Source: Escherichia coli O127:H6 str. E2348/69 (GTDB lineage Bacteria; Pseudomonadota; Gammaproteobacteria; Enterobacterales; Enterobacteriaceae). From it: a stretch of DNA of 64,000 nucleotides. The notes below the pieces were generated by a model. The model saw only the letters and a list, made by a program, of their open reading frames with translations, made no database searches and was not told where the DNA came from. A program made the position numbers and the translations under genes. Location of the stretch: NCBI RefSeq assembly GCF_000026545.1, contig NC_011601.1; one strand, given 5' to 3'. Positions 16,202 to 23,272 of the stretch are shown here, in pieces; position 1 is the stretch's first letter; every line of letters starts with the position of its first letter.

Positions 16202-16322
16202 AACAAACTCCAGATAAGTGCTTTTTTATGATTACGCCACATCATAAAAAGAATAAAAAATATCGATTTATGTCGAGTCTATGCAAAAATGATATGGATT
16301 ACCGGATTGCGAGAGAGCGCTA

Positions 16323-17937: not shown

Positions 17938-18025
17938 TCCTCTCTCCTGATGTGTGTTACCGCAACAAGGCTGAATAAGGAACGAGGCAAACGCCTCAAC
18001 GGCCAGGTGCCTAATCTCTATTAAC

Positions 18026-18059
18026 GAAAAAAGGGCCGGATGTACAGCACATCCGGCCC
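18026..18059 (-). terminator. rho-independent terminator of araE
   Basis: Perfect 11-bp stem GGGCCGGATGT/ACATCCGGCCC with 5-nt loop just after araE stop, followed on the minus strand by a U-run (plus-strand A-run 18026-18032). Confidence 0.8.
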
Positions 18060-18065
18060 GTGAAA

Positions 18066-19484
18066 TCAGACGCCGATATTTCTCAACTTTTCGCCTGCCA
18101 TCAGTTTGCGCTCGATATGTTCCAGCGTGACATTTTTGGTTTCCGGAATGAGCCAGAAAGTGATGCCCACAAACGCAATGTTCAGCGCAGTGTAGAGCCA
18201 GAACGTACCGGCAGCGCCAATGCTATCAAGCAGTGTCAGGAAGGTCGCGCCGATAATCATATTCGACACCCAGTTTGTCGTCGTTGAGCAGGTGATGCCA
18301 AAATCGCGGCATTTCAGCGGCTGAATTTCAGAGCACAAGATCCACACCACTGGCGCGGCGCTCATCGCATAACCGGCAATACACATCATCGTCATGCCAA
18401 CAGAGAGCCAGGACAAGCCACTGGAAGCCGTACCGTTATCAAACTGCATCAGGCAGTAACCCAGCACCAGAGTGCCTAACGCCATCACGCTGAAACCAAT
18501 TTTCAGAGCCGGCTTACGCCCTGCTTTATCTACCGTAAAGACCGCAATGAAGGTAGCGAACATAAAGGTCAGCCCCACGACCAGAGTCGCAATCATCTGT
18601 TGTTCTGTGGTCGTAAAGCCCGCCATTTTGAAGATACGTGGCGCGTAGTACATGATGATGTTCATACCGGTAAACTGCTGCATCGCCTGCAACAACATAC
18701 CGAGAAATACAGCACGACGGACGTTACGGTTGATCTTAAACAATGCCCAACCGCCCTGTTTTAACTTCAGGCTTTCACGAATTTCGTTGAGTTCTTCTCG
18801 CGCTTTTTCCGACGTATCGCGCAGCATACGCAATACTTCTTCCGCCTCAATATGACGCCCCTTTTCCGCCAGCCAGCGCGGGCTATTTGGCAGGAAGACC
18901 ACCAGAATAATCAGCAGAACTGCTGGTAAAGCAAGAACCCCCAACATTGCGCGCCAGTTACCGCTATAACTGAACGCTGTATCGGATAAAAACGCCAGCA
19001 CGATGCCGAGAGTGACCATCAACTGGTACATGCTGATCATCTTACCGCGAACGTTTTCACTTGCCATTTCAGAAAGATACAGAGGAGCGGTGTAAGACGC
19101 GATCCCGACAGCAATGCCCAGCACCACTCGAGCGGCGATTAACATCTCTACGCTGGTCGCAAAAGCGGACCCTATCGAGCCGAGCACAAACAGGATGGCC
19201 CCCGCCATCAGGCTGTATTTACGCCCCAGGCGGAACGACAGCCAACCATTAAACAGCGCACCAATTGCTGCGCCGAGCATCATGCTACTGACCACCCATT
19301 CCTGCAAACGACTGGTCAGCACAAAGTGATCGGTAATGAACGGCAACGCTCCGGCGATTACGCCGATATCAAGACCAAATAACAATCCTGCGACCGCAGC
19401 AGCTACCGAAACAAACATATTCATACGCCGCGTATCCCGCAGAGGACGTGGCGTTAAAGCAGATTCCGTATTGATAGTAACCAT
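18066..19484 (-). CDS. araE: arabinose:H+ symporter, MFS (472 aa)
   Basis: Track ORF 18066..19538 trimmed to internal Met [13 protein letters not shown] to give 472 aa; sugar porter family. Confidence 0.93.
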
Positions 19485-19559
19485 TTTTTCCTGCCAGCAG
19501 AGAGTAAGACATAGTGAAAAAATACGTGAACAATTCACACAGGTGTCAGGTCGGAAATA

Positions 19560-19740
19560 GCATAAATATGGATTAAATTGCTACGACATGTCGTTATGTG
19601 ATGGATATTCCAATTTTCAAATTAAGTTGAATTATTGAGATTATTATTAACTACCTAATTTTAAAGCAGATAAAATTCATAAAGTTCATCAATTGATAAT
19701 TGATATGGATTATTTCATAACCATGATATGGATTATGATG
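19560..19740 (-). promoter_or_regulatory. araE upstream region with three copies of ATATGGATTA (possible AraC half-sites)
   Basis: ATATGGATTA at about 19567, 19704 and 19727; the latter two are direct repeats about 23 bp apart, resembling AraC I1-I2 half-site geometry; coordinates approximate. Confidence 0.35.
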
Positions 19741-19762
19741 ATCTACAGGTATAAAAAACCCT

Positions 19763-19772
19763 GCCATGCGAC
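19763..19772. repeat. direct repeat GCCATGCGAC flanking IS copy 1 (second copy at 21323-21332)
   Basis: Identical 10-mer immediately outside both ends of the element; 9 or 10 bp may be true target-site duplication. Confidence 0.8.
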
Positions 19773-21322
19773 CTGTCTCTTGATCAGATCTCCTGATCAA
19801 GAGACTTCATCACCAGGTAACCCTCAACCATATCCTGAAGTCTGAACCAGCCATCCCACATGACTACCCAACCGGGGCGACCGGTGCGTTTGCTGTCATG
19901 CCATCGCCCCAGTTTCGCCAGTTTCAGACAGGCCCATTTCAGTGTCGGCATCTGTGACGGAAGCGGTTTTCCTTCCAGCTTAACCCACAGCAGTTTCCAC
20001 TCTGTCGGCGTCAGTATTTTCTCACAGCTGTCATTTTGTGTTTCTTCACTGATACCGCCCTGCCGCAGGCCCAGCACCCGCACCGCGATAAACGCCTTGA
20101 TAACCACCATGCGCTCGAGGTTATCCCGGGTCTGCATTCGCAGCGATTCCACACATGTACCACCACTTTTCCACGCCTTGTGGTATTCCTCTATCAGCCA
20201 GCGTCGCTCGTAATGGCTGACGATACGTCGCGCATCGGCGGCACTCGCCACTTTTTCTGACGTCAGCAGATGCCAGCAGGCGCCGTCCTCTGCCTGCTCC
20301 CGGCAACAGACATACGTGAGCGGGAGCGCCTGGCCGCTGTTGTCGGGATTTTTTATGCTGACTTCGCTGTAACTGATGAACATCCGGGCCTGGCGGGCTG
20401 CCCGCCCGCCTTTTTGCATCACATTCAGCGTGTGGCTTCCCGCGGTTGCCAGGACTTCCGGCAGTTCGAAGAGCTTGCCGGGTGCTTCTTCCAGCCGGCG
20501 ATTCTGTGCTGCACGCACCACGAAGCGCTGCCCGTGGCTGACTTTATAATGCAGGTAATGCCAGATATCCGCTTCCCGGTCACAGACAGTGATTACCCGT
20601 TTCTGTATCTCCCCCAGCCGTTCGGCCATGCGCTCCGAAGCCTGCTGCCAGCGGTAACTTTCTTTTTCTTCATAGGGACGTTCTTTTCGCTGGTGCTTAA
20701 CACCGTAGGTGTCCGTGGCACGACTCCAGCGCTGCTGTTCGATAAGACCGACTGGCAGGGCGCTGTCGGGGGCGTACATCAGGACAGAGTGAGCCAGCAG
20801 CCCGCGCGTCTTCGGGTTAGTGGTGGTATTCCCCAGGTCATCAGATGCCGTACTGTGACTGAAGTTAATGGTGGTGGTGTCTTCCAGCGCGAGGAGCAGC
20901 GGATGAGCCTCACATGCCCTTACAGTGGCGGTAAATCCGGCTTCGGCAATGGCTTGCGGGGACACAGACGGGTTACGTATCAGGCGGTACGCACCTTCAA
21001 CCTGAGCAGTGGACTGGGATGATTTCACAATAGAAAGACCTGCATGCTGAGCGAGAGAAGAGGCCAGTGACACAAGGCGTCGTGTACGACGCGGATCACC
21101 GAGACGGGCATGTCCAAACTGCTCGTTAGCCCATGAATAACAATCAGAAAGTACCATAACAGACCCGAAGAAAATGAAATATAAGAGAAGATCAACAGGT
21201 GAGGAAAAAGTTCAAAAAATCGCTGCCGGGGAGGAAGGAAACTACCGGATGGAAAGAGTCCCCCTAAAGCAGACTGACAGACATCACAAATCCCCGGGTG
21301 GGGATTTGTGTATAAGAGACAG
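19773..21322 (-). mobile_element. IS4-family, IS50-like insertion sequence, copy 1 (1550 bp)
   Basis: Termini CTGTCTCTTGATCAGATCT (left) and revcomp CTGTCTCTTATACACAAAT (right), matching IS50 inside and outside ends as I recall them; single 457-aa transposase ORF; flanking direct repeat; identical second copy at 43835-45384. Confidence 0.9.
19784..21157 (-). CDS. IS50-like (Tn5-type) DDE transposase (457 aa)
   Basis: Tn5 Tnp-like motifs LALEDTT, VCDREAD and YERRWLIEEYHKAWKSG (DDE triad and YREK signature); stop codon lies inside the left terminal repeat as in IS50. Confidence 0.9.
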   Translation of the reverse strand: MVLSDCYSWANEQFGHARLGDPRRTRRLVSLASSLAQHAGLSIVKSSQSTAQVEGAYRLIRNPSVSPQAIAEAGFTATVRACEAHPLLLALEDTTTINFSHSTASDDLGNTTTNPKTRGLLAHSVLMYAPDSALPVGLIEQQRWSRATDTYGVKHQRKERPYEEKESYRWQQASERMAERLGEIQKRVITVCDREADIWHYLHYKVSHGQRFVVRAAQNRRLEEAPGKLFELPEVLATAGSHTLNVMQKGGRAARQARMFISYSEVSIKNPDNSGQALPLTYVCCREQAEDGACWHLLTSEKVASAADARRIVSHYERRWLIEEYHKAWKSGGTCVESLRMQTRDNLERMVVIKAFIAVRVLGLRQGGISEETQNDSCEKILTPTEWKLLWVKLEGKPLPSQMPTLKWACLKLAKLGRWHDSKRTGRPGWVVMWDGWFRLQDMVEGYLVMKSLDQEI

Positions 21323-21358
21323 GCCATGCGACAGGGTCATAAAAGTAAGAGGAATGAA

Positions 21359-22120
21359 TTAACGCGCCAGCCAACCGCCATCCACGGCAATGGTATAACC
21401 ATTCACATAATCTGAAGCGCTGGAGGCAAGGAACACCACCGGCCCCATCAGGTCACTCGGCAGTCCCCAACGGCCAGCTGGAATGCGGTCGAAAATTTCC
21501 GCGCTACGTTGTTCATCTGCCCGCAGTTGTTGAGTATTGTTGGTCGCCATGTAACCCGGAGCTATCGCATTAACATTAATGTTGTGTTTAGCCCATTCGT
21601 TCGCCATCAATCGCGTCACGCCCATCACACCGCTTTTTGATGCGGTATAAGAAGGCACACGGATCCCGCCCTGGAAGGAGAGCATTGACGCGATATTGAT
21701 AATCTTGCCGCCATTGCCTTGCGCGATAAAGTGTTTCGCCGCTGCCTGAGACATGAAGAATACGCTCTTGATATTCAGGTTCATGACATCGTCCCAGTCT
21801 TTTTCGCTGAATTCGAGAGCGTCTTCGCGGCGAATCAATCCGGCGTTATTCACCAGGATATCAATATGACCAAACTCAGCTACCGCGCGATCCAGCAGTG
21901 CTGGAATGCCATCAATCTTTCGCAGATCGGCGGTCAGGCTTAAAAAACGACGCCCCAGCGCCGTGACCTGCTTGATGGTTTCAGTCGGTTCAACGATGTT
22001 AATGCCAACAATGTCACAGCCCGCTTGCGCCAGCCCCAACGCCATCCCCTGGCCCAGCCCAGTATCACAACCAGTGACGACCGCAACTTTACCTTCGAGA
22101 GAAAATGCACTTAAAATCAT
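21359..22120 (-). CDS. kduD: 2-dehydro-3-deoxy-D-gluconate 5-dehydrogenase, SDR family (253 aa)
   Basis: Track ORF 253 aa, SDR glycine-rich motif VTGCDTGLG. Confidence 0.95.
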   Translation of the reverse strand: MILSAFSLEGKVAVVTGCDTGLGQGMALGLAQAGCDIVGINIVEPTETIKQVTALGRRFLSLTADLRKIDGIPALLDRAVAEFGHIDILVNNAGLIRREDALEFSEKDWDDVMNLNIKSVFFMSQAAAKHFIAQGNGGKIINIASMLSFQGGIRVPSYTASKSGVMGVTRLMANEWAKHNINVNAIAPGYMATNNTQQLRADEQRSAEIFDRIPAGRWGLPSDLMGPVVFLASSASDYVNGYTIAVDGGWLAR

Positions 22121-22149
22121 AACAATACCTTATTCGTTTATGCCCACAA

Positions 22150-22986
22150 CTAGCGCAAATCTTTAACGGCCACATGGTCCATATCATCAAAAACCTGGTT
22201 TTCACCGACCATGCCCCAGATAAAGGTATAAGCTTTGGTTCCGACGCCGGAATGGATCGACCAGCTCGGGGAGATCACCGCCTGCTCGTTATGCATCACA
22301 ATGTGACGCGTTTCTTGCGGTTGCCCCATCATGTGGAAAACGCAGGCGTCATCATCCATATTGAAATAGAAATAAACTTCCATCCGGCGCTCGTGGGTGT
22401 GACACGGCATGGTGTTCCACAAGTTACCTGGAGCCAGCTCCGTCAGCCCCATACTCAATTGGCAGGTTTCCAGCACATCCGGGACAAAATATTTGTTAAT
22501 CGTGCGACGGTTACTGGTGAGGTTATCGCCTAACGTGACTGGAGATACTTCGTCCGGTGTGACTTTTTTGGTGGGATACGTCGTATGCGCGGGTGCGCAA
22601 TTGTAATAAAACTTCGCCGGAGTGGCGGTATCAATACTGGCAAAGACAACTTCTTTTGCACCTTTACCAACATACAGGGCGTCGCGGTGACCGATTTCAT
22701 AGCATTGACCACCGACAGTAATCGTACCGGCACCGCCAATATTGATAACACCTAACTCGCGACGTTCAAGGAAATAGCTTACGCCGAGTTGTTTACCAAC
22801 TTCCCCGCCAACGGAAACCGTTTTAGTTACCGGCATAATGCCGCCAACAATAATACGGTCAATGTGGCTGTAAACCATGGTGTACTCATCGGCGACAAAT
22901 ACCTTTTCAACCAAAAATTCATTGCGCAGCCCCTGGGTATCCAGCGTTTTTGCGTGCGCACTGTGGATGCTCTGTCTTACGTCCAC
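22150..22986 (-). CDS. kduI: 5-dehydro-4-deoxy-D-glucuronate isomerase (278 aa)
   Basis: Track ORF 278 aa, recognisable KduI sequence; directly upstream of kduD. Confidence 0.95.
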
Positions 22987-23272
22987 ATCAACCTCCGATA
23001 ATCAGTGAAGCGTGAAAATAGAAAATAACAATGAAACACTGTTTCGTTTTCTCTATGAGGGGATGATATGCCCATGGGATAGGGTTTTCAATTAAAAATA
23101 AAACAATGTTTCATTTTCAAGTTAAGGATTAAAAAAAGTGCAGTGTCGATCACGAATATGTCATGAGAATGGAAAAATCAGGGAGCCCTGAAAAGGTATG
23201 TCGACTCACCAGCCATCATTATTCAACAGATTAATGACGGCAGATATTTATCGGTAAGGAGGAAATGCAGAG

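Follow-up and report, generated by a model that had tools for sequence, protein, structure and literature searches.

An ISEc13 copy splits the kduD terminator upstream of araE in Escherichia coli E2348/69

In Escherichia coli O127:H6 str. E2348/69 an insertion sequence (IS) lies between the genes kduD and araE, which raises the question whether it disturbs the control of araE and why it came to lie at this very place. The window analysed here is a stretch of 64,000 nucleotides of contig NC_011601.1, in which the element, a copy of ISEc13, occupies positions 19773 to 21322. We have good confidence in the following answer: a recent, simple insertion of ISEc13, driven by the target preference of the element, took place in the kduD terminator, leaving araE control essentially unchanged and depriving the gene of an insulator against transcription from kduID.

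According to this explanation the ISEc13 transposase would prefer a palindromic target of the form CCYCN-(8-10 bp)-NGRGG, which the GC-rich stems of intrinsic terminators may supply. Here the hairpin of the kduD terminator would have been used, and the insertion would have duplicated its loop together with the flanking stem base pairs (10 bp). The arabinose- and cyclic AMP-dependent control of araE would stay essentially as it was. The effect in cis would then be that kduD loses its terminator and araE its insulator from kduID transcription; transcripts of kduID or of the transposase gene could, in principle, cross the IS and reach the control region of araE. The finding itself is of small import, since the reference strain is well studied, the IS copy is already annotated and the araE control region is apparently intact. 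Its interest lies in the explained position (a presumed preference of a Tn5 relative for terminator hairpins) and in a pair of conserved distal boxes upstream of araE. It is also relevant for those working on arabinose induction or on kdu and ara expression in E2348/69.

The split kduD terminator

The element at 19773-21322 (minus strand) is a complete ISEc13 copy of 1550 bp, belonging to the IS50/Tn5 subgroup of the IS4 family. Its first letters in the window are CTGTCTCTTGATCAGATCT and its last are ...GTGTATAAGAGACAG. It was recognised by its identity to annotated copies: the elements of E2348/69 that are annotated as 'IS4-like element ISEc13 family transposase' are 100% identical to it, and the name ISEc13 is used here as the RefSeq product name that these identical copies carry. 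A segment of 2.5 kb spanning the element (window 19300-21800) matches the chromosome of enteropathogenic E. coli (EPEC) O127:H6 E2348/69 (NZ_CP059840.2) at 100%, and the gene order araE - ISEc13 - kduD - kduI is common to both. We are dealing with a known, already annotated IS in a known genome, and with an ordinary insertion. Aligning 19773-21322 against the window by BLAST gives two matches of 1550 bp at 100% identity, namely the element itself and 43835-45384, which confirms that the window holds a second identical copy, as the original prediction had it. In E2348/69 the element is abundant: up to 30 matching places are found on the chromosome and two on the plasmid pMAR2, so that ISEc13 has undergone an expansion in this strain.

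The insertion left a clear footprint. The 10-bp target-site duplication GCCATGCGAC is present on the araE side at 19763-19772 and on the kduD side at 21323-21332, and abuts both termini, exactly as the direct repeat had been described beforehand. The junctions read ...ccctGCCATGCGAC/CTGTCTCTTGATC... and ...AAGAGACAG/GCCATGCGACagggtc.... We considered a duplication of 9 bp plus one chance base and rejected it, since the 10-bp blocks abut the termini exactly and a shifted IS boundary would not agree with the other ISEc13 copies. When the empty site is reconstructed with a single GCCATGCGAC, it is matched at 100% in some natural strains, and among 5426 complete E. coli genomes at least 5406 have it in unbroken form. 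The occupied junction occurs in three assemblies only, all of them E2348/69 or laboratory derivatives. The insertion is recent, lineage-specific and simple.

What was interrupted becomes apparent from a comparison with K-12, where the spacer between kduD and araE measures 314 bp. An intrinsic terminator stands at its start, 21 nt past the kduD stop codon, and consists of GACCCTGCC-GCAT-GGCAGGGTT followed by a T-run (nine base pairs, a GCAT loop and T6). The reconstructed EPEC empty site folds likewise, with a 9-bp stem and a T-run. Over 16 genera the T-run of this terminator is conserved, and the arms are still complementary despite their varying sequence. The 10-bp duplication corresponds to the loop of the hairpin plus the innermost stem pairs, so the ISEc13 insertion splits the intrinsic terminator of kduD (21359-22120, minus strand). 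One remnant, the 5' stem arm GACCCTGTC, is still found 21 nt past the kduD stop at 21330-21338 (minus strand), whereas the other, the 3' stem arm GGCAGGGTT with the T-run, lies severed from it on the araE side at 19753-19765 (minus strand), within a remnant that extends to 19772. A scan of the occupied window over 19400-21420, an interval that takes in everything from the kduD stop to the araE start, detected no terminator on the minus strand. In E2348/69 kduD is without its canonical terminator and araE is without an insulator against kduID transcription. This split had been overlooked in the original prediction.

The same hairpin was met in another context. In the unrelated strain E. coli CFSAN061771 an IS1 is located in the kduD terminator loop, no more than about 2 bp from the ISEc13 site, and a deletion next to this IS1 removes kduD through part of a sigma-54 regulator gene, annotated as ygeV in E2348/69.

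Read-through into araE, whether it begins in kduD or in the IS, is possible on this arrangement, and it is better motivated than before because the IS splits the kduD terminator. A stronger version holds that transcripts of kduID, which is regulated by KdgR, or of the IS itself extend into araE and lead to arabinose-independent expression of that gene. It is favoured by the split terminator, by the lack of a canonical minus-strand terminator between the kduD stop codon and araE, and by the shared minus-strand orientation of kduD, the transposase gene and araE (with coordinates that agree with the RefSeq annotation of E2348/69). However, a transcript would have to traverse approximately 1.9 kb, including untranslated stretches exposed to Rho, and would meet strong hairpins at both IS ends. 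The first of these, an 11-bp hairpin, folds just inward of the transposase-proximal end (within 21285-21322), and the second, a perfect 13-bp hairpin, folds at the transposase-distal end and overlaps the transposase stop codon (within 19773-19805). Neither is directly followed by a U-run on the minus strand. Moreover, no promoter-like site was detected on the minus strand within the IS, and any read-through transcript must presumably cross the araE promoter region while regulators may be bound there. Weighing both sides, we regard such arabinose-independent expression of araE as unlikely.

The araE control region

Does the element interfere with araE control more directly? The coding sequence of araE (18066-19484, minus strand) is intact. 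To map its control region we aligned araE upstream regions for 16 genera, drawn from 80 loci that a search with the AraE protein had located, and counted boxes and cores over 75 species-level araE loci. In otherwise divergent sequence the conserved blocks are exactly the predicted I1, I2 with the -35 hexamer, the -10 hexamer and a CRP-like site. Together they form a predicted control module at 19519-19612, based on sequence and on conservation in the 16 genera.

All parts of this module are read on the minus strand. The putative AraC half-site I1, TAGCAATTTAATCCATA at 19583-19567, has a perfect TAGC-N7-TCCATA pattern and occurs in 67 of the 75 loci. After a gap of four bases (TTTA, 19566-19563) follows I2, TGCTATTTCCGACCTGA at 19562-19546, which has an araI2-like ending and overlaps the -35 hexamer CTGACA at 19549-19544. 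The probable -10 hexamer is TATTTT at 19524-19519, where TAnTTT is conserved; its assignment draws on conservation and on analogy with pBAD. Transcription is estimated to start around 19512. A CRP-like site was found by motif match at 19597-19612, reading TGGAATATCCATCACA (plus strand TGTGATGGATATTCCA) with the pattern TGTGA-N6-TTCCA. Relative to the estimated start its centre falls at about -92, just upstream of I1, and its core TCCATCACA is present in 57 of the 75 loci. This conserved site also includes TCCAT (ATATCCATCACA), the core common to AraC boxes. Published coordinates of AraC and CRP footprints or of the transcription start of araE were not found in the literature searched, and therefore the promoter map rests on motifs, pBAD analogy and conservation. 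An Rfam scan of 18000-23000 gave no match at E<=1.

The layout is familiar from pBAD, in which the hexamers are arranged as CTGACG-18-TACTGT and I2 overlaps the -35 (PMC11983282). In the predicted order of its elements the araE region resembles the araBAD promoter: distal TCCATA boxes stand farthest upstream, followed by a CRP-like site, then by I1 and finally by I2, which overlaps the -35 hexamer (CTGACA).

These distal boxes deserve attention. Two of them are present on the minus strand at 19732-19727 and 19709-19704, 23 bp apart, and they are candidate araO2-like AraC half-sites, TCCATA being the motif that araI1 and araO2 have in common (PMC11983282). They precede the I1 core by 160 and 137 bp and the araE ATG by about 248 and 225 bp. 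Both boxes are found at the 23-bp spacing in 55 of the 75 loci, on a par with the CRP-like core and near the value for I1, even though the surrounding sequence is not conserved. We therefore see them as good candidates for an O2-like AraC operator, and the pair may be an AraC operator that has gone unrecognised. In this respect araE differs from araBAD, because it has two distal boxes 23 bp apart and because these are far closer to I1 than araO2, which stands some 210 bp from I1.

The boxes are also embedded in a larger repeat. The decamer ATATGGATTA occurs four times in the window against 0.07 expected, and three of the copies are upstream of araE (starting at 19566, 19703 and 19726). The suspicion that these repeats are AraC sites turned out to be largely right: the proximal copy (19566-19575) falls within the perfect TAGC-N7-TCCATA half-site, while the two distal copies hold the conserved TCCATA cores and keep the rank of candidates. 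The fourth copy, at 16292-16301, is situated in the lysA-lysR spacer upstream of lysR and could be due to chance or be a further AraC-type half-site.

A different assignment would make the IS disruptive, namely that the two distal ATAATCCATATCA repeats are I1-I2 themselves, with a CRP site over the kduD terminator. We rejected it on three grounds. The perfect TAGC-N7-TCCATA together with ...ACCTGA/-35 is found at 19583-19544; no TGTGA/TCACA half-site exists between the distal boxes and the terminator; and the distal repeats are 23 bp apart instead of 21 bp and have no TAGC box.

Relative to this map the element inserted on the far side. Its end at 19773 is separated from the araE ATG by 289 bp and from the last ATATGGATTA (19726-19735), which lies closer to araE, by 37 bp. 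The distances given earlier for this locus hold, as does the co-orientation of the transposase gene (open reading frame 21157 to 19784) with araE (19484 to 18066), both on the minus strand. The insertion point between 19772 and 19773 is approximately 260 bp upstream of the estimated araE start; it clears the predicted I1-I2/CRP-like module by about 160 bp and the outermost conserved box by about 40 bp. Since the promoter, I1-I2, the CRP-like site and both distal boxes remain contiguous with araE, its control should be essentially unchanged.

The opposite had been proposed, i.e. that the insertion removes the native sequence upstream of the araE control region and could alter regulation by CRP and AraC. 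In favour of such a displacement one may point to the short distances (289 bp to the ATG, 37 to 40 bp to the outermost conserved TCCATA box) and to the possibility that a large insertion near a looping operator changes the local DNA topology. Against it, the araE gene is intact and no conserved block of its upstream region was cut off: I1-I2 and the -35 are still on the araE side, and so are the CRP-like site and both distal boxes. The only native elements that were moved, by 1.56 kb, are kduD and the 5' arm of its terminator. As far as can be told from sequence, all araE regulatory sites are downstream of 19773, which is the very situation that the original prediction had named as speaking against its own proposal. 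A change of AraC/CRP-dependent control through displaced regulatory DNA is thus very improbable. The insertion probably does not damage araE control, and any effect on araE regulation is probably small and confined to possible read-through.

The second copy and the interval between the copies

The second ISEc13 copy, at 43835-45384 (minus strand), has the same orientation as the first and carries a 9-bp duplication, CCACCATGC. It interrupts ygfK, which encodes a putative selenate reductase subunit and is annotated in E2348/69 as two pseudogene fragments. As direct repeats the two copies bracket 21323-43834, an interval of 22.5 kb with the genes kduD, kduI, yqeF, yqeG, tRNA-Gly, actS, xdhABC, ygeV-ygeY, hyuA, arcC, yqeB, yqeC, mocA and the 5' part of ygfK.

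Two identical direct copies around an interval that is missing from assemblies of a laboratory derivative of E2348/69 might recall a composite transposon that arrived as one unit. We reject this origin with hardly any reservation: the duplications of the two copies differ (10 bp GCCATGCGAC against 9 bp CCACCATGC), the outer flanks share none, and the two empty sites, like the genes in between, belong to the ordinary core sequence of E. coli and stand in their native order. The separate duplications and the native core context argue for two independent simple insertions.

The interval is lacking in the assemblies of the laboratory stock E2348/69 'variety 2' and of its derivative EPEC1 (LT827011, LT903847), in which one IS copy directly joins the other at a spacing of 0 bp (...AAGAGACAG/CTGTCTCTT...). 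These genomes were obtained from Illumina reads of 150-174 nt with a partly reference-guided assembly (PMC5685641). A tandem dimer made by the transposase was therefore set aside, as an assembly of this kind would turn a simple recombination with one remaining IS into the same abutted picture. Probably the 22.5-kb interval has truly been lost, whereas the tandem junction is unreliable and may be an artefact of plain IS-IS recombination. The direct copies make the interval from kduD to ygfK prone to loss.

Other ISEc13 copies show signs of rearrangement as well. In CP148541.1 (around 2.305 and 2.366 Mb) two inverted copies are 60 kb apart and neither has a duplication of its own; instead, each left flank matches the right flank of the other copy (8 bp each), which is the signature of an inversion through recombination of one copy with the other. 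An ISEc13 copy on pMAR2 is likewise without duplication.

Target choice and relation to known elements

Why did ISEc13 choose a terminator hairpin? We collected ISEc13 junctions from two sources, ten from hits in E. coli genomes and ten from one further genome, and retained 18 independent events with duplications, from approximately ten genomes, for a consensus. The duplication is 8 bp long in 12 events, 9 bp in five and 10 bp in one, the latter being the araE copy; lengths near one helical turn fit the IS50 subgroup. In transposase orientation the flanks follow the consensus CCYCN-(8-10 bp duplication)-NGRGG, in which C at -4, G at +2 and G at +4 are each found in 18 of 18 sites and C at -2 in 17 of 18. 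With spacings of 8-10 bp, a score of at least 7 out of 10 is reached by 94% of the insertion sites and by 0.5% of the window positions. Two further, more diverged copies also fit.

Most of the sites are GC-rich, terminator-like hairpins on whose loop the duplication is centred, and most fold at -13 to -24 kcal/mol. Examples (with the duplication between slashes) are the agp/yccJ site, CTCCCCC/GCGTGAAG/CGGGGGAG, and the site between ybaY and a gene of the MGMT family, AACCCTCT/CCGCCCGG/AGAGGGTT. The agp/yccJ hairpin was hit twice independently, with duplications of 8 and 9 bp. The kduD terminator has its arms, CCCT and AGGG, at a distance of 10 bp, and this spacing would explain the unusual 10-bp duplication if the arms position the cuts. 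The ygfK copy, GCCGT/GCATGGTGG/AGAGG (duplications at 43826-43834 and 45385-45393), fits the consensus and is not a hairpin, which hints at recognition of sequence more than of structure.

More sites were sought through two diverged transposase variants. The yield of new places was small, since the 98% variant is fixed at one site, the ybaY/MGMT hairpin. Copies with the transposase variant WP_001357015 (about 98% DNA identity) occupy this same hairpin in many genomes. Such a copy looks old and vertically inherited, unlike the multi-copy identical form in E2348/69.

On these grounds we propose, as a tentative idea that could well prove wrong, that ISEc13 is a Tn5-like IS with an unusually strict choice of CCYCN-(8-10 bp)-NGRGG, that is, of the stems of terminators and similar hairpins, and that the length of its duplication is set by the spacing of the arms and not by a fixed stagger. 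If this is true, ISEc13 would systematically remove terminators at gene ends, in the present case fusing the transcription units of kduID and araE, and its transposase would tolerate a flexible distance between the two strand-transfer sites, unlike that of Tn5. The preference would make ISEc13 a natural variant of the Tn5 system with a defined target selection. No description of an ISEc13 target preference was found in the searchable literature, though it may be recorded in ISfinder.

Several points weigh against our overall explanation. The consensus was derived from the same 18 sites on which it was scored, and since the ygfK copy fits it outside a hairpin, recognition of sequence and recognition of structure are not separated. 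We placed the AraC and CRP sites and the transcription start by motif matches, by the likeness to pBAD and by conservation. We infer both the unchanged regulation of araE and the possible read-through, and the latter could be blocked by the IS-end hairpins of 11 and 13 bp and by Rho acting on 1.5 kb of IS RNA.

The transposase places ISEc13 close to Tn5. Its gene, at 19784-21157 (minus strand), encodes 457 amino acids plus a stop codon and is the only long open reading frame of the element. The protein aligns over its full length with Tn5 transposase structures (PDB 4DM0/1MUH; E=6e-84, residues 6-453) and scores 514 bits against the NCBIfam IS4 equivalog NF033590, for which the cutoff is 160. 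The DDE triad is formed by D93 (EDTT), D193 (CDREADI) and E323, and the YREK motif, defined as Y(2)R(3)E(6)K (PMC2266710), by Y316/R319/E323/K330 within YERRWLIEEYHKAWK; both align to the corresponding Tn5 motifs. ISEc13 should therefore move by cut-and-paste transposition of the Tn5 type, a chemistry we infer from this homology. The multiple matching places, the identical copies and the polymorphism of the insertion between strains are indirect signs that bear on its mobility.

The ends are in line with this. Short terminal inverted repeats are present, with CTGTCTCTT at both ends and 13 of 19 positions identical between one end and the other, and they start with the 5'-CT that is typical of the IS10 and IS50 subgroups (PMC2266710). 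The transposase-proximal terminus (21304-21322; reverse complement CTGTCTCTTATACACAAAT) is of the outside-end type and agrees at 17 of 19 positions with the IS50 outside end and at 17 of 19 with the engineered mosaic end, the sequences of both having been confirmed from oligonucleotides (PMC3347997). In the terminal 26 bp at the transposase-distal end there are three GATC sites (IS positions 1525, 1533 and 1538). The distal terminus itself, CTGTCTCTTGATCAGATCT at 19773-19791, is of the IS50 inside-end type and is identical at 19 of 19 positions to the IS50 inside end. In some copies of CP148541.1 the loop of the 13-bp hairpin reads GAAATC instead of GAGATC, with which one GATC site is lost.

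Comparing ISEc13 with IS50 and Tn5, the likeness extends to the full-length transposase homology with conserved DDE and YREK residues, to an inside-end-type terminus with GATC (Dam) sites that includes the transposase stop codon, and to the direction of the transposase gene, which runs from the outside end towards the inside end. Differences are found as well. ISEc13 has no internal methionine where the IS50 inhibitor protein starts, it carries strong hairpins just inside both ends, and its duplication is variable (8-10 bp, most commonly 8) against a fixed 9 bp for Tn5. The target differs too: the Tn5 consensus A-GNTYWRANC-T is unlike the CCYCN/NGRGG flanks of ISEc13.

Hairpins as targets are known from elsewhere. 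IS1272/TnSha1, a member of the IS1182 family in staphylococci, uses hairpins as integration sites, among them several confirmed transcriptional terminators, and has hit one and the same hairpin repeatedly and independently (PMC4923244). ISEc13 shares with IS1272 both the hairpin targets and the repeated use of the same hairpin (agp/yccJ, twice). IS1272, however, produces no duplication, deletes part of the hairpin and has no primary-sequence consensus (PMC4923244), whereas ISEc13 yields duplications of 8-10 bp and shows a clear flank consensus. A second parallel comes from E. coli itself. In work attributed to saiSree et al. (2001), IS186 reportedly inserts at G-run/C-run targets with duplications of variable length. 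ISEc13 would be similar to IS186 in its GC-rich, symmetric targets and in a duplication length that varies with the target. The arms would be reversed, though: G-run...C-run in IS186 against C-run...G-run in ISEc13, the latter making a hairpin stem, and the two transposases belong to different lineages.

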